Source of the DNA: a virus | Taxonomy: Duplodnaviria; Heunggongvirae; Uroviricota; Caudoviricetes | Reading direction: 5' to 3' (one strand) | Virus record (IMG/VR): IMGVR_UViG_643348551_000008 | Span: 1-44,793 of that record | Length of the DNA: 44,793 bases | Shown: positions 24,797 to 42,343 of the stretch, one piece after another | How the letters are laid out: the number at the start of each line of letters is the position of its first letter | How positions within the stretch are numbered: the stretch's first letter is position 1 | Position numbers and translations under genes: made by a program | The notes under the pieces: model-generated | The model's input: only the letters and a program-made list of their open reading frames with translations | The model's database searches: none | What the model was told of the DNA's origin: nothing

Positions 24797-25177
24797 TCAG
24801 CGTTTCAACTGAAAGTGAGGCCCGTCTTTCAGTGTTTTCCAGTCCCCACCCCATTCGATGGCAGTTCCCAGCTCTGCGGCAGCCTGCTTAAATGCCTGCG
24901 CGATTTTCTCGTACAGAGGCCAGTCCCATGACACCTGGCTGCCAATGTAGGCCACAACATCCACCGCATCACCTGTAAGGTGGCGGCTGTTCATGGTCTG
25001 GCTTTTCCCTGCCGCTACCAGCTGTTTCTGGCGATACTTACTGCGCAGACCTTCCGTGATACCAAAATCAACCTCCGTCAGCTCCAGCGCACGGCGAACG
25101 ACAGCAACCAGCTGTGGTTTGACGCCCTCCAGATTTTTTTCACTGCGACGGCTGAATCTGAATTTACCCGGCATCAT
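24797..25177 (-). CDS. Endolysin, peptidase M15 family (L-alanyl-D-glutamate peptidase-like)
   Basis: HxxGxAxD-like SRHLTGDAVDV and WGGDW...H motifs; directly after the holin-like genes. Confidence 0.65.
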   Translation of the reverse strand: MMPGKFRFSRRSEKNLEGVKPQLVAVVRRALELTEVDFGITEGLRSKYRQKQLVAAGKSQTMNSRHLTGDAVDVVAYIGSQVSWDWPLYEKIAQAFKQAAAELGTAIEWGGDWKTLKDGPHFQLKR

Positions 25178-25179
25178 AT

Positions 25180-25455
25180 TCACCTCAACAATGGAAAGAT
25201 TTTTGTGACGTTCCCGCGTGCGCGTATCACCAGCACGCAGAACAGCAGGTTAAAAAACACTTCCAGCCAGCCCGTTGCTAACGGGCGACCACACAGATAG
25301 CTGAGGGGCGCAAAGGCATACAGCAGCATCAGCAGCCAGGCCAGCCATGACATCAGCGGTTTGTGTCTGGAGTCACGACGACGATAAAAAAAGAGCGTCA
25401 GCACGATAACCGTGCATAACGCCACATTCAGCAATCCGGGAAGGTTACTTAACAT
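25180..25455 (-). CDS. Small integral membrane protein (91 aa), putative holin/antiholin component
   Basis: Two to three hydrophobic segments; GGAGG SD before ATG at 25455. Confidence 0.45.
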   Translation of the reverse strand: MLSNLPGLLNVALCTVIVLTLFFYRRRDSRHKPLMSWLAWLLMLLYAFAPLSYLCGRPLATGWLEVFFNLLFCVLVIRARGNVTKIFPLLR

Positions 25456-25837
25456 TGCCGCCTCCTCCACCCCGCAGGCGGGAGAACACACCGGACACCA
25501 GTGATGCAATATCCTGCTGGTGGATGAACGACAGAATCTTCACCGACACCACCGATACCAGCACCGCACACAGCGCATCTGCCGATGTACCGTCATACCC
25601 TGTTGTTGATGCAATCCAGGCTGACAGCACGCGCGCCCCCAGCACGCCGACGATAAACGACACCAAAAAATGCGCCACCACGCGCCAGACTGAAATCTTC
25701 TGCGGCATCGTTGCCACAAATAACGCCCCGGCGAACGCACCAAACACAATCCCGAAATCCGTTCCGGTAAACAGCCCGAATACCGTCGCCCCGCCGAGCG
25801 CCGCAGCCGTGCCGGAACCGGATAAGGGTTCAGACAT
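25445..25837 (-). CDS. Holin-like membrane protein (130 aa)
   Basis: Gly/Ala-rich hydrophobic helices with charged C-terminus; AGGAGA SD before ATG at 25837; upstream of the endolysin. Confidence 0.5.
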   Translation of the reverse strand: MSEPLSGSGTAAALGGATVFGLFTGTDFGIVFGAFAGALFVATMPQKISVWRVVAHFLVSFIVGVLGARVLSAWIASTTGYDGTSADALCAVLVSVVSVKILSFIHQQDIASLVSGVFSRLRGGGGGNVK

Positions 25838-25925
25838 ACTTTTTTCTCCTGTAAATAAAAAAGGGCCACCAGCGGCCCGTAAAAACACCCCGTCAAAGGC
25901 ACCCGCAGATGCCTTTTGTGTGGTG

Positions 25926-26078
25926 TTATTCAGATTTACGCAGTAAAGGCCGGAGCACGACCAGCGCCATCGCCACCAGCACACCATCTGCCAGCACCGA
26001 CATCAGCCGTCCGGTGAAATCCACCGCCACTACCAGAAACAGCAGGATGGCAGCCAGCACAAGGCGCGCACTTTTCAC
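25926..26078 (-). CDS. Small hydrophobic protein (50 aa, GTG start coupled to the upstream stop)
   Basis: VKSARLVLAAILLFLVVAVDF...; GTGA overlap with the stop of the TerB-like gene, GGAG 7 nt upstream. Not in the ORF track because under 60 aa. Confidence 0.3.
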   Translation of the reverse strand: MKSARLVLAAILLFLVVAVDFTGRLMSVLADGVLVAMALVVLRPLLRKSE

Positions 26079-26500
26079 AGGTACTGCTCCAGCGGTAGCT
26101 GAAGCGCCTGCGCAATTTTCTTGAGCTGTGTTTCTTCATCCGGACCAATGCCATCCTGGTCAGCGATATCCAGACACAGGCACAGCACATTAACTGCGTC
26201 ATCAGTACCTGCCACGTCAGCCAGCTGACGAAGGGCTTCAGCATTGGCAGAGCGCGGCGACGCTTCATAACGGGCGCGGATATTTGCACTCATTTGTGCA
26301 ATCTCACCGGAGAACGGCGCAAAGGCAGGAAGTGCTGCAATGGTTTTCTCCAGTACCGCGACTTCTTTCGCGTCACAGGTGTCGTCAGCATATGCAATGG
26401 AATACGCGCCCCAGACGGTCGCCTCCACTGCGTCGCGGTTCTCCATCTTCTTCACTTCGGTAATGGCCTTGCGGGTTTTCTTTTTGAAAATACCAAACAT
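26075..26500 (-). CDS. TerB-like domain protein (tellurite-resistance TerB family), cargo gene
   Basis: 141-aa ORF with the recalled TerB pattern (N-terminal MFGIFKK, ...IAYADD...DIADQDGIGPDEE...). Confidence 0.5.
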   Translation of the reverse strand: MFGIFKKKTRKAITEVKKMENRDAVEATVWGAYSIAYADDTCDAKEVAVLEKTIAALPAFAPFSGEIAQMSANIRARYEASPRSANAEALRQLADVAGTDDAVNVLCLCLDIADQDGIGPDEETQLKKIAQALQLPLEQYL

Positions 26501-26872
26501 CGTGACTTTTCCTTTTAGTGGGTGAGCCTGCGCCCGGGGGTGACCAGCCCACAGAGAAAGTCACACTGACCATCCCGTAAGCTCACCCCTGAAAGGCTCT
26601 GTGGTTTTTGATGTGCGCCGGGCGTGGCGCAAAGAAATGAAATAAGACTTACCTGAAATTAAGGTTAATCTGAGGATTTAAACCATTTTTAAAGCTTAGT
26701 AATATCAACTCGTCTCCTGAAGGAGACAGATACTTATGATTCTTCATGGACTTTGTCCCGCGGCGTTAATCCGACGGCCGCGCTTTTTTTGCGCCATATT
26801 CATCGCTAACTTACATGGCATTGCCACACGGGCATTATCAGTGTCCGTGTTTCTTTTTTTAGGGTTCAGAAT

Positions 26873-26897
26873 AAAAAAAACCGCCCGGTGGAGGCGG
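26873..26897 (-). terminator. Intrinsic terminator downstream of the tRNA genes
   Basis: Stem ccgccc/gggcgg (26881-26897) followed on the minus strand by a U8 run. Confidence 0.65.
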
Positions 26898-27178
26898 TAA
26901 AGGATGTATTTCCAGGTTTTGCTTAGTATATGATTAATCTCAATGTCATTTTTAGCGATGTTTACAACATCGGGATGACACATCACCGACCCTGTCAGGA
27001 AATACAAAATCTCCACCGACAATGCGCCATTCCGATGTTATAAAAAATCAGCACTGATACCGTAATAAATAACATTCATTACAGGACGGGATGTAGTAAG
27101 GAGTCAGGGTAAAACAAAAACATCCCACACATATAATGTGTCAGTGCCTAACACAACCTAGCATCTATTGTCCTCGGC

Positions 27179-27253
<75 letters not shown>

Positions 27254-27256
27254 ATA

Positions 27257-27332
27257 TGGTGCCGACTACCGGAATCGAACTGGCGACCCGGTGATTACAA
27301 GTCAGTTGCTTTGTCTGCTAAGTTAAATCGGC
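27257..27332 (-). tRNA. tRNA-like gene, possibly tRNA-Thr (UGU) with imperfect stems (may be degenerate)
   Basis: Acceptor GCCGATT/AGTCGGC plus CCA and T-loop TTCGATT present; anticodon loop CTTGTAA but only 3 bp pair in the anticodon stem and the D-arm is atypical. Confidence 0.4.
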
Positions 27333-27513
27333 AACGGTTCCTCGGAAAAAATAAAACGACCGATATATGCATTATTTCCCTGTCATCTCCTCGGAACTGA
27401 CTATTGATATTAATGAGGGCAAACACTATTTCAATAAACATAGTGTCAATATTAGTAAATATATGTATAAATTTCTATCACTCGTGATTGATTACAAATA
27501 ATCACACACATAT

Positions 27514-28560
27514 TTAACTATTTTCTTTTATTTCGCTTACAGTCTGGTTAAATCTCTCTTCTTCCTGCTCCACACCTATTGCATGCCGTCCCAGCGATAA
27601 TGCTGCTTTTATTGTTGATCCCGACCCCATAAAAAAATCAGCAACCAAATCTCCCGGATGGCTGCTGGCGGTAATTATCTGACGCAACATATCCGCCGGT
27701 TTCTCACAGGGATGTTTGCCGGGGTAATACTGCACAGGCTTGTGCGTCCAGACATCCGTATACGGAACAGCTGCCGATACGGAAAAATAACGCCGCAGGG
27801 ATTTGTACTCTTCCAGCAGGCTGGCATATTGCCGGTTCAGTTCACTGTATGTGCTGACCAGCTGGTGGTGCGGCTTTTCCAGTTCACCGCGTTGATGTTT
27901 TTCTGCTGCAACACGCGCAAACAACGCCTGTAATTTCAGATAATCGCCTTCGTTCGGCAACTGCCACTGACTGATACCAAACCAGTGCGAAGCCATGTTT
28001 TTCTTTCCGGTGACTTCCGCTATCTGTTTTGACGTTATACCCAGTGATTCACGCGCATCACGAAAGTAAGAAATCAGCGGAGCCATCACGTGCTGCTTAA
28101 GCTCGCGCCCCTTTGCCGCATAGCCGTCATTTTTTGGCTGATATGGCCCCTGATAATGTTCAGCAAACAGAATGCGTTCTGTTGCCGGAAAATACGCCCG
28201 CAGGCTTTCCTTGTTGCACCCGTTCCAGCGCCCGGACGGCTTCGCCCAGATAATATGGTTCAGCACATTAAAGCGCTCACGCATCATGATTTCGATATCA
28301 GATGCCAGGCGATGACCACAGAACAGGTAGAGACTTCCGGCAGGTTTCAGTACCCGCCAGAATTGCGCCAGACACTGATCCAGCCATTTCAGGTAATCAT
28401 CGTCGCCCTTCCACTGGTTATCCCAGCCCTCGGGCTTCACTTTAAAGTATGGCGGGTCTGTGACTATCAGATCGACAGAGTTTTCCGGTAAGGTCTGGAT
28501 AAATTCCAGGCAATCAGCGTTGATTAACTCACAACTGGATATTTTTACAGTATTAGCCAT
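27514..28560 (-). CDS. DNA methyltransferase (N6-adenine/N4-cytosine class, orphan)
   Basis: DPPY motif near the N-terminus and FxGSGST near the C-terminus; no adjacent restriction endonuclease. Confidence 0.8.
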   Translation of the reverse strand: MANTVKISSCELINADCLEFIQTLPENSVDLIVTDPPYFKVKPEGWDNQWKGDDDYLKWLDQCLAQFWRVLKPAGSLYLFCGHRLASDIEIMMRERFNVLNHIIWAKPSGRWNGCNKESLRAYFPATERILFAEHYQGPYQPKNDGYAAKGRELKQHVMAPLISYFRDARESLGITSKQIAEVTGKKNMASHWFGISQWQLPNEGDYLKLQALFARVAAEKHQRGELEKPHHQLVSTYSELNRQYASLLEEYKSLRRYFSVSAAVPYTDVWTHKPVQYYPGKHPCEKPADMLRQIITASSHPGDLVADFFMGSGSTIKAALSLGRHAIGVEQEEERFNQTVSEIKENS

Positions 28561-29165: not shown

Positions 29166-30360
<1,195 letters not shown>

Positions 30361-30361
30361 T

Positions 30362-30514
30362 TAGATATTTTAGATATTTTAGATATTTTAGATATTTTAG
30401 ATATTTTAGATATTTTAGATATTTTAGATATTTTAGATATTTTAGATGTTTTAGATGTTTTAGATGTTTTAGATGTTTTAGATGTTTTAGATATTTTAGA
30501 TATTTTAGATAAAT
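30362..30514. repeat. 9-bp tandem repeat array (about 16.5 units: 9x TAGATATTT, 5x TAGATGTTT, 2x TAGATATTT)
   Basis: Directly visible; abuts the IS5 right end and lies about 175 bp upstream of the porin start codon. Confidence 0.95.
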
Positions 30515-30689
30515 ACTGCATTGAAAATTATCACCAATATTTAACACCACACATAAATGTGATATTGATCACACTATAAACCCTTAAATAAACCCCATAT
30601 CTTGAAATAACAGTACCGATTAGATGTATATTTAAGTTGCAGCGACATCATTTTTTAATAATAGTTCCCAAAAGGACTAAGGATTCATA

Positions 30690-31772
30690 ATGAAAAAATT
30701 AACAGTGGCAATCTCTGCTGTAGCAGCATCAGTATTGATAGCTATGTCCGCTCAGGCAGCTGAGATTTATAACAAAGACAGCAATAAATTAGATCTGTAC
30801 GGAAAAGTTAATGCCGGGCACTACTTCTCCTCTAACGATAAACACGATGGTGACAAAACTTATGCTCGTCTGGGATTCAAAGGTGAAACCCAAATCAACG
30901 ATAAACTGACTGGTTTCGGTCAGTGGGAATATGAATTCAAAGGCAACCATGCTGAATCTCAAGGTTCCTCCGCAGACAAAACCCGTCTTGCGTTTGCTGG
31001 TCTGAAATTCGGCGACTACGGCTCCATCGATTATGGTCGTAACTACGGTGTAGCATACGATATCGGTGCATGGACTAACGTTCTGCCAGAATTCGGTGGC
31101 GATACCTGGACTCAAACAGATGTATTCATGACTGATCGCACCACAGGTGTTGCAACTTATCGTAACAACGACTTATTTGGTCTGGTTGATGGTCTGAACT
31201 TTGCTGCTCAGTATCAGGGTAAAAATGACCGCACTGACGTAACTCAAGCTAATGGTGATGGTTTCGGTTTCTCCACTACTTATGAGTATGAAGGATTCGG
31301 CGTAGGTGCAACCTATGCTAAATCTGACCGCACTAATAATCAGGTTATCTACGGTAACAACAGCCTGAATGCATCTGGTCAAAATGCTGAAGTATGGGCA
31401 GCTGGTCTGAAATATGATGCGAGCAACATCTATCTGGCTACTACCTATTCTGAAACCCAAAACATGACTGTTTTTGGTAAAAACCATATTGCCAACAAAG
31501 CACAAAACTTCGAAGTAGTTGCACAATATCAGTTCGACTTCGGTCTGCGTCCGTCCGTTGCTTACCTGCAATCTAAAGGTAAAGACCTTGGCGTTTTTGG
31601 TGACCAAGATTTAGTCAAATATGTTGATGTAGGTGCAACCTATTATTTCAACAAAAATATGTCAACTTTTGTTGATTACAAAATCAACCTACTTGACAAA
31701 AATGATTTCACCAGAAATCTTGATATAAACGCCGACGATATTGTTGCTGTCGGTATGGTTTACCAGTTCTAA
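30690..31772 (+). CDS. nmpC: Outer membrane general porin, NmpC/Lc (OmpC/OmpF) family
   Basis: 360-aa ORF with signal peptide [23 protein letters not shown] and C-terminal ...VGMVYQF; resembles recalled DLP12 NmpC; located next to Q. Confidence 0.8.
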
Positions 31773-31959: not shown

Positions 31960-32343
31960 TCAATAACACCTAACAACTTCGCGATCCATCTCGAGACGAA
32001 CATCCAATGCCATCAACATTCCTTCGACTATTCCTTCAGCCTTCTGAAGTTTTTTTCCTATATATCCATCAGAACAATGATGCTTACAGGCCAGTGCCAT
32101 GAACGTCATACCAACCACATAATAATCTATCAGCAAATCATGCAAATCACTGTTGTTCTTTTTCAGACGAGCCATGCAACCACAGATAACCATTGCGTCA
32201 TCATCACAACATTGCGGGCGTGACTTAACCTTTGACGGAATCAGTCCTTTGAATCCCGCAGCAATCGGTGACCAGGTAACATCCTCGTGGTTATTTGCCA
32301 CCCATGCCCCCCAACGCTCAAGAACCATCTGGATATCACGCAT
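31960..32343 (-). CDS. Late-gene antiterminator Q (phage 82/DLP12 QuuD-like)
   Basis: 127-aa [27 protein letters not shown]... resembles recalled QuuD; lies after the replication genes. Confidence 0.75.
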
Positions 32344-41330: not shown

Positions 41331-41519
41331 ATGAGACTGTATTTCACAATAGTAATTTTACTGGCAATTATCGCATGTATTTACGGATTACTTGTTCCGT
41401 TCCTTATATCCATGAAGGATACGATAGCAGTTATTTCTGGCTTTGCACTGGCGTTTCTGACCCCGCCCTGCATTTATGCCATTTACAAGGGTCTTTCTTT
41501 CACTAAGGATAAAAGATGA
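41331..41519 (+). CDS. Small two-helix membrane protein (62 aa)
   Basis: Hydrophobic segments ILLAIIACIYGLLVPFL and ISGFALAFL; ATGA overlap with the next gene. Confidence 0.5.
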   Translation: MRLYFTIVILLAIIACIYGLLVPFLISMKDTIAVISGFALAFLTPPCIYAIYKGLSFTKDKR

Positions 41520-42343
41520 AAAAAATTATTTTTGCTTTAGCCATTGTTCTGCCGACTATTGGCCTTGTCGGTTGCGATCGCGTTGAACCAGGTAATGTTG
41601 GCATCAAGGTAAATAAACTGGGCGACGACAAAGGCGTCGGTGAGGTGGTCGGTGTTGGTCGCTACTGGACTGGCTGGAATACTGAAGTTTACATCTTCCC
41701 CACCTTCAAGCAAATGAAGACCTACGATGAACCGTTCAGTTTCCAGATGAGTGACGGTACAACCATCGGCTATCACATTGGCGTGGCCTACAAAGTTGAT
41801 CCATCCAAAGTTACCACGGTGTTTCAGACCTACCGCAAAGGCGTGGATGACATTACCGACACTGACCTGCGCCAGAAGATCGCCGACGCACTCAACCGAC
41901 TGGCCAGCAAAATGACCACTGACAAATTTATCGACGGCGGCAAGTCTGAGCTGCTGGATGCAGCCCTTAAAGACATTCAGGCAGAAATGACGCCCATCGG
42001 TATTCAGGTAATGAGTCTCTCATATGTGGGTAAGCCGGAGTACCCGCCAACCGTTATCGACAGCATTAATGCCAAAGTCACGGCAAACCAGAAGACCCTG
42101 CAACGCGAACAGGAAGTAAAACAGCGCGAAGCGGAAGCCAACATGTTGCGCGCGGAAGCTGCCGGACAGGCTGACGCCATTCGCACAAAAGCCCAGGCCG
42201 AAGCCGATGCTATTCGTTTACGCGGTGAAGCTCTGCGCCAGAACCCTGGTGTTATGGAACTGGAAGCCATTAATAAATGGAACGGCACACTGCCGCAATA
42301 CATGACCAGCGGTGCCAGTACACCATTTATCCAGGTTAAATAA
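41516..42343 (+). CDS. SPFH/Band-7 (stomatin/prohibitin/HflKC-like) domain lipoprotein
   Basis: Lipobox LVGC after an N-terminal signal, SPFH-like core, C-terminal coiled coil ending ...ALRQNPGVMELEAINKWNGTLPQYM. Confidence 0.6.
   Translation: MKKIIFALAIVLPTIGLVGCDRVEPGNVGIKVNKLGDDKGVGEVVGVGRYWTGWNTEVYIFPTFKQMKTYDEPFSFQMSDGTTIGYHIGVAYKVDPSKVTTVFQTYRKGVDDITDTDLRQKIADALNRLASKMTTDKFIDGGKSELLDAALKDIQAEMTPIGIQVMSLSYVGKPEYPPTVIDSINAKVTANQKTLQREQEVKQREAEANMLRAEAAGQADAIRTKAQAEADAIRLRGEALRQNPGVMELEAINKWNGTLPQYMTSGASTPFIQVK

Follow-up and report, generated by a model that had tools for sequence, protein, structure and literature searches.

A tciAB-like gene pair encoding a TerB-family protein and a DUF3927 peptide in the stx2e-equivalent slot of a lambdoid prophage

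In a lambdoid prophage, the late operon carries, at the position that is taken by the Shiga toxin 2e genes in phage phiP27, two overlapping genes that resemble tciA and tciB of phage P1. We analyzed the whole stretch of 44,793 nucleotides of the caudoviricete record IMGVR_UViG_643348551_000008 (hereafter, the window), and the features discussed below are summarized in Table 1. Taking the evidence as a whole, we consider with moderate confidence that the locus is a P1-type tciAB cassette that would be expressed late through the antiterminator Q and would have a membrane-associated role in the lytic phase. The first-pass annotation of the same DNA had described a TerB-like cargo gene in an stx-equivalent slot of the late operon, coupled to a small hydrophobic ORF, and this core reading was upheld.

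Table 1. Features of the tciAB-like locus and its surroundings (window coordinates unless another locus is named).
Feature	Position	Strand	Remarks
M15 endolysin	24797..25183	-	Pfam/PHROG
Phage_holin_3_7 holin	25180..25509	-	Pfam/PHROG
Phage_holin_8 holin	25445..25837	-	Pfam/PHROG
Lysis cassette	24797..25837	-	~92% identity to phiP27 lysis genes
Intrinsic-terminator-like hairpin GGGCCGCTGGTGGCCC + T-run	25863..25878	-	between tciB stop and holin Shine-Dalgarno
tciB-like gene	25926..26078	-	50-aa DUF3927 peptide, GTG start
tciA-like gene	26075..26500	-	141-aa TerB-family protein
Conserved cassette leader	26501..26642	-	G+C-rich (56%), conserved like the coding region
Leader hairpin GCGCCACGCCCGGCGC	26630-26615	-	followed by a long imperfect hairpin, then AAGGA Shine-Dalgarno
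Small-RNA-like unit	26677..26790	+	hexamers, hairpins, terminator; z = -3.5
Promoter-like hexamers	TTTAAA 26677-26682, 17 nt, TAATAT 26700-26705	+
Inverted repeat GTCTCCTGAAGGAGAC	26712..26727	+	6-bp stem, non-palindromic 4-nt spacer/loop
Invariant GGAC/GTCC hairpin	26748-26758	+
Terminator	26759-26790	+	CGCGGC..GCCGCG then T7
Second terminator	26826-26860	+	convergent with the - strand terminator
Strong intrinsic terminator	26880..26898	-	ACCGCC..GGCGGT then T8; ends tRNA unit upstream of the cassette
tRNA-Gly	27179..27253	-	ARAGORN
Second tRNA-like gene	27260..27332	-	Rfam only, 43.7 bits
N6/N4 DNA methyltransferase	27514..28560	-	homologous to phiP27 L24
IS5-type DDE transposase	29312..30292	-	between Q and methylase
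OmpC/Lc-type porin gene	30690..31772	+	between Q and methylase
Antiterminator Q	31960..32343	-	presumed driver of late transcription through terminators
Decayed tciB 3' fragment	L002 (phiP27) 6810-6990		matches window 25842-26020
Small-RNA-like unit in relatives	L103 1440-1620; L104 2480-2700; L004 6440-6660

The 141-aa ORF reported as TerB-like is present, and the HMM search against the TerB family that had been proposed as a check gave a match: the Pfam profile PF05099 scored 28.1 bits, above its gathering threshold of 24.4. This match is partial, covering only aa 11–57 of the protein (TciA) on profile positions 60–106; PHROG 632, "tellurite resistance," which is placed in the category "moron, auxiliary metabolic gene and host takeover," matches TciA over its full length (E = 2.7e-63). 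All 1.84 billion cluster representatives were scanned with HMMER, and only 151 relatives of TciA were returned, most of them 140–150 aa long and 28–40% identical, and a scan of the GTDB genomes with the single protein returned only 10 loci. A family alignment and profile were built on 43 of the 151 relatives. PF05099 (best E = 1.6e-19) and PHROG 632 were each matched by all 43 sequences, and the five genomic contexts inspected were phage-like. The family profile matched the solved structure of Klebsiella pneumoniae TerB (2JXU) with E = 1.5e-24, aligning profile positions 9–142 with chain residues 15–149. The single TciA sequence, used without the family profile, gave no match to the solved TerB structure, and in a pairwise comparison TciA and canonical TerB were 19% identical (E = 0.07).

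An all-helical TerB-like fold was found for TciA, and two A-D-G-x5-E acidic motifs are repeated across the alignment of the 43 relatives, in which D39, E46, G117, and E122 are conserved. Residue 40 (26381–26383) is Asp in the window (ADDTCDAKE) versus Gly in at least 90% of the family; the DNA encoding this Asp is identical in at least one other Escherichia coli genome. The first 22 residues are basic (pI 10.7; MFGIFKKKTRK...), and residues 23–141 make up an acidic helical bundle (pI 4.1). TciA is a divergent stand-alone TerB-family protein with a basic N-terminus and an acidic seven-helix bundle. A dN/dS ratio of 0.04–0.09 indicates purifying selection, and NCBIfam contained no model that matched either TciA or TciB.

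The second gene, tciB, corresponds to the hydrophobic 50-aa ORF that had been noted downstream of the TerB-like gene and described as coupled to it. Its GTG start overlaps the TGA stop of tciA by 4 nt (GTGA), a GGAG lies 8–9 nt upstream of the start, and the peptide matches Pfam DUF3927 (E = 2.4e-14) and PHROG 1470, "TciB-like" (E = 2.5e-24). The hydropathy profile contains two hydrophobic helices, and two Asp residues are retained even in relatives with only 35% TciA identity. Judged by these features, TciB is a translationally coupled, predicted two-helix membrane peptide with two conserved Asp residues. The tciB gene lies directly 3' of tciA in 88 related loci, and the TerB–DUF3927 pair is kept in other phage contexts where TciA is 56% and 35% identical. 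One candidate for a natural TciA–TciB fusion (P0053) was rejected, as it looks like a frameshifted P1-type pair. Downstream of tciAB, the next gene encodes a phiP27-type holin in 71 loci and a different, Stx-phage-type holin in 13. No tciC was found here: between tciB and the holin there is no ORF, only two hairpins.

The neighboring genes place the pair where the first-pass annotation had put it, between the tRNA genes and the lysis genes, the latter consisting of two holins and an M15 endolysin. ARAGORN found one tRNA only, tRNA-Gly. The second tRNA-like gene is annotated as tRNA-Thr in some relatives and is unannotated in the closest one; because it was seen by Rfam and not by ARAGORN, and because its annotation is uneven, it may be degenerate. 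The gene order of the window (methylase, tRNAs, tciA/tciB, holin, holin, endolysin) was then compared with that of phiP27 (Q, L22, L23, methylase, tRNA-Ile, tRNA-Arg, stxA2e, stxB2e, holin, holin, endolysin), to which the methylase is 91% and the lysis genes are 92% identical. Because the methylase and lysis genes are homologous in phiP27, tciAB occupies the stx2e slot, and the stx-equivalent position claimed earlier is thus borne out by synteny, with stxA2e and stxB2e lying between the tRNAs and the homologous holins. The Stx proteins are unrelated to TciA and TciB, but late antiterminated expression is expected for both cargoes. More generally, lambdoid phages carry toxin genes or other cargo in this slot between Q and the lysis genes.

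The homology with phiP27 extends to window position 26020, i.e., into the 3' ~95 nt of tciB. Directly after stxB2e, phiP27 therefore retains a remnant of tciB, which is decayed by an in-frame stop and a 1-nt deletion that shifts the frame, and it has no other part of the pair. The downstream terminator of the cassette is also kept in phiP27, after the remnant and before the holin. The remnant next to stxB2e suggests that one cargo replaced the other, with stx2e taking the place of most of a tciAB cassette or vice versa.

Among 80 related IMG/VR loci, the homology to the window starts at 26642 or 26630 in most, and it ends at ~25971, 25936, or 25850 or continues through the lysis genes. In the SerU-LTIIb phage and the E. 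coli M6 prophage, the flanks are preserved but exactly 26609..25936 is missing, and these cassette-less relatives keep the same lysis genes. Imperfect direct repeats, AAAAACCACAG and AATAACACCACAC, flank the filled site at the junctions 26609 and 25936, as seen by comparison with the empty sites. The presence of repeats at the junctions suggests that tciAB was gained or lost by short-homology recombination. At least six different upstream contexts of the cassette were found. These alignments show tciAB as a discrete two-gene cargo insertion among the late genes of a lambdoid prophage, and two features of morons were found: the presence or absence of the block between homologous phages and a downstream terminator.

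Of 5426 complete E. coli genomes, 164 (~3%) had 80% or more of the cassette on the chromosome, and a form with 80% identity was detected on ~170 P1-like plasmids (~3%). The products are named "tellurite resistance TerB family protein" and "DUF3927 family protein" by PGAP. In the relatives, Q is co-oriented with tciA and lies ~3.4 kb upstream of it, in late operons, and one TciA relative is located downstream of NinG and Q. The tciAB–holin–endolysin segment was also found at 93% identity in PP818812.1, registered as "Actinobacillus phage vB_Apl-pPE4"; this host name is unexpected for an enterobacterial lambdoid module.

We next considered how the pair might be expressed. The leader of the cassette has a predicted fold of -54.7 kcal/mol (z = -2.1), and its segment GGGGTGAGC has two possible pairing partners, TCACCCC and GCTCACCC. 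Its helices vary little between loci, a lone compensatory change being confined to one of them (L090), and the sequences are too similar for covariation. No Rfam family was found over the leader, and a 62-aa overlapping ORF in it was rejected because its frame is broken by indels. The terminator that ends the tRNA unit is conserved in the related loci; in most other contexts, the cassette has its own terminator hairpin and T-run immediately upstream, and the stem covaries between loci. A simple consensus scan, which weak or non-sigma-70 promoters escape, found no sigma-70-like site on the minus strand at 26500–27230. Promoter-like matches on this strand occurred at 27265..27238, inside the tRNA genes, and at 27434..27407, upstream of the tRNAs; the latter could allow low read-through into tciAB in lysogens. 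Given the bracketing terminators and the lack of a promoter-like site, Q antitermination after induction is the expected route of expression. We infer that it is the likeliest route, and it is consistent with the anatomy of the locus. The pair, apparently having no promoter of its own, would be silent in the lysogen, and after induction RNA polymerase modified by Q would read through from the late promoter into tciAB. In Stx phages, stx2 is likewise expressed by late antitermination after induction. In P1, the parallel is the location of tciABC inside the C1-repressed ban operon. The porin gene and the IS5-type insertion between Q and the methylase might disturb late transcription in the window. 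In a 99.6%-identical relative from an APEC strain, the segment with the porin and transposase genes (29312–31772) is replaced by three other plus-strand genes.

Upstream of tciA, the first-pass annotation had reported a 16-bp perfect palindrome at 26712–26727. The sequence GTCTCCTGAAGGAGAC is indeed located there, but it is not a perfect palindrome, as its reverse complement is GTCTCCTTCAGGAGAC. The window contains 28 perfect hairpins with a 6-bp stem and a 4-nt loop, versus 11.8 ± 2.8 in shuffled sequences, so this repeat alone is unremarkable. We regard it as very improbable that the repeat is an operator or regulatory site for tciA. It does lie upstream of tciA, and its hairpin potential is conserved in the relatives that share the spacer, with changes in the loop and compensatory or wobble changes in the stem. 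However, it is not palindromic, it lies 212 nt before the start of tciA, beyond the boundary of the conserved cassette, it does not precede tciA in most contexts, and it is present in phages without tciAB. It also coincides with the predicted beginning of a unit on the opposite strand that has its own promoter-like hexamers and terminator, the hairpin beginning ~7 nt downstream of TAATAT. The repeat is probably the 5' hairpin of this small-RNA-like unit on the plus strand.

The unit forms a separate conserved module (~26609–26796), which in the SerU-LTIIb phage and the M6 prophage adjoins the holin on its upstream side and is not accompanied by tciAB. In an RNAalifold analysis of 11 variants, all three hairpins were kept, and 4 of 17 pairs had compensatory changes. 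A 46-nt paralogue was found in 5353 of 5426 E. coli genomes at ~90% identity; the one match inspected, in K-12, lies between yodB and the tRNA-Ser gene serU, and the promoter-like hexamers and the terminator are also conserved in the K-12 alignment. Neither the hairpin unit nor the K-12 paralogue is covered by an Rfam family, and no mention of a yodB–serU sRNA was found in the literature. A CyaR-like Rfam match at 26874..26943 was treated as chance (23.6 bits versus a gathering score of 47), and the small ORFs at 26649..26747 (-) and 26736..26900 (+) were rejected because of start-codon loss, 1-nt indels, and internal terminators. The unit is most simply read as an undescribed small-RNA-like unit and not as a regulator of tciA; a relation to the Pas sRNAs, which adjoin holin operons, is possible.

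The closest known system is the tci region of P1. TciA is 85% identical to its P1 counterpart as a protein, and the two genes are ~80% identical in DNA sequence. In a megablast comparison with phage records, the match covers exactly the coding region, and the matches over the tciA coding region are to P1 and P1-like phage-plasmids. In P1, as in the window, tciA is followed by an overlapping DUF3927 peptide gene (~52% identity, counted by eye), and the pair lies downstream of a DNA methyltransferase gene (dmt in P1) and tRNA genes; expression during lytic development is expected in both phages. In contrast, P1 carries a 35-aa tciC that the window lacks, the 5' leader and flanks of its genes are unrelated to those of the window cassette, and its tci genes belong to the C1-controlled ban operon, whereas the window cassette lies upstream of the lysis genes in the late operon. 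By these comparisons, the cassette belongs to the P1 TciA/TciB kind (PHROG 632/1470), which is known and already annotated. The names tciA, tciB, and tciC were given in the P1 annotation by homology only. Previous studies have reported that tciABC is non-essential for P1 by CRISPRi (PMC10695390), that P1 virion preparations contain TciA peptides (PMC9024508), that tciABC is transcribed during lytic growth in P1vir infection (bioRxiv 10.64898/2025.12.28.696737), and that the tci region of P1 varies and has been lost from roughly half of the members of one P1-like subgroup (PMC9603915).

We also compared TciA with the TerB of the ter operons (terZABCDE(F) of R478, the O157 islands, and K. pneumoniae). 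The two share the Pfam family, the helical fold, a similar size, and the A-D-G...E motifs, but they are only 19% identical, and the relatives of TciA are phage-borne. Moreover, TerB of the ter operon occurs with TerC, TerD, TerE, and TerZ partners, whereas TciA stands alone, paired with a 50-aa peptide; none of these four partners was found among the flanking ORFs, and none is annotated by PGAP in the 99.6%-identical region. A TerB-like domain is also contained in Shango and other TerB-domain defense systems. Unlike the systems of this kind in PADLOC, TciA and TciB have no associated ATPase or helicase, and neither matched any PADLOC-DB defense model, including the Shango TerB-domain models, at E ≤ 0.1.

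As for function, we tentatively suggest that a TerB-like module anchored by TciB may act on membrane or cation homeostasis late in the lytic phase. TciB would hold TciA at the cytoplasmic side of the inner membrane, in the way that TerC holds TerB, and the pair would act on the membrane or on cation homeostasis. It could, for instance, protect the membrane potential when holins trigger too early or when the cell meets abortive-infection pores, colicins, or superinfecting phages. This physiological role is a best guess, extrapolated from ter operon phenotypes. A narrower version, in which a TerB-like cation-binding protein and a tethering peptide with intramembrane Asp residues would be turned on together with the late genes and would hold the membrane potential or ion balance until lysis, appears more doubtful. 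A further candidate for membrane-associated cargo is an SPFH/Band-7 domain protein encoded at 41516–42343 (+) in the early-left region, near the excisionase and integrase genes.

It is unlikely, in our view, that tciAB is instead a moron with its own promoter that is expressed in the lysogen and confers superinfection exclusion or protection from pore-forming colicins, like the Phi and PacB phenotypes of ter. The PHROG category, the discrete indel with a downstream terminator, and the possible read-through from the promoter-like site at the tRNAs agree with this explanation, as do reports that associate the ter operon with the inhibition of phages and with resistance to colicins (PMC7371120, PMC9603915). 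However, the scan found no promoter-like site in the stretch from the upstream terminator to tciA, a terminator immediately precedes most copies, no PADLOC model matched, and the P1 genes are in a C1-repressed operon. The location directly upstream of holins (the 71 phiP27-type and 13 Stx-phage-type loci), the two-helix membrane peptide, and the co-transcription with the lysis genes expected from the anatomy raise the alternative that TciB with TciA adjusts lysis timing as an antiholin or another regulator of the neighboring holins. We rate this slightly lower still, since in P1 and in the 56%-identity relative (L098) the pair is away from the lysis genes, the slot also hosts the unrelated stx2e, and the cassette-less relatives keep the same lysis genes.

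That a small hydrophobic peptide is tightly coupled to a soluble partner might also point to a toxin–antidote-like pair, with TciB as the toxic peptide and TciA as its control, and the P1 annotation contains the wording "inhibition of cell division." Such a pair is quite improbable: the P1 name derives from homology only, gene order and translational coupling would make the putative toxin lie downstream of TciA and depend on it, and no toxin–antitoxin family in Pfam, NCBIfam, or PADLOC was matched. Least credible among these functional alternatives is a prophage-borne tellurite-resistance determinant, which the family name, the Pfam and PHROG labels, and the PGAP product name would imply. The minimal tellurite-resistance unit is reported to be terBCDE(F), in which TerB forms a complex with the membrane protein TerC (PMC11003894), and solitary phage TerB genes without Ter partners have been judged inactive for resistance (PMC8421299). 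With no TerC, TerD, TerE, or TerZ nearby, and with so low an identity to canonical TerB, tellurite resistance is unlikely here.

The established picture is not changed by these results; what is modestly new is the exact allelism with stx2e seen in the phiP27 remnant, the apparently promoter-less architecture fenced by terminators, and the strict pairing of TerB with DUF3927. Solitary phage TerB-like genes are repeatedly labeled "tellurite resistance," and the TciA clade, among the relatives sampled, is phage-specific and travels with a DUF3927 membrane peptide. The cassette appears to behave as a promoter-less unit in an exchangeable late-operon slot that also carries Shiga toxin 2e, and its anatomy points to expression in the lytic phase rather than to lysogenic conversion. 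If the narrower, more doubtful membrane reading is correct, the TciA–TciB module would blunt abortive-infection pores, colicins, or superinfection, and it would represent an exchangeable alternative to toxin cargo, displaced by stx2e in the phiP27 lineage. The tciAB locus may thus offer a concrete and cheap experimental handle on the role of the TerB domain.
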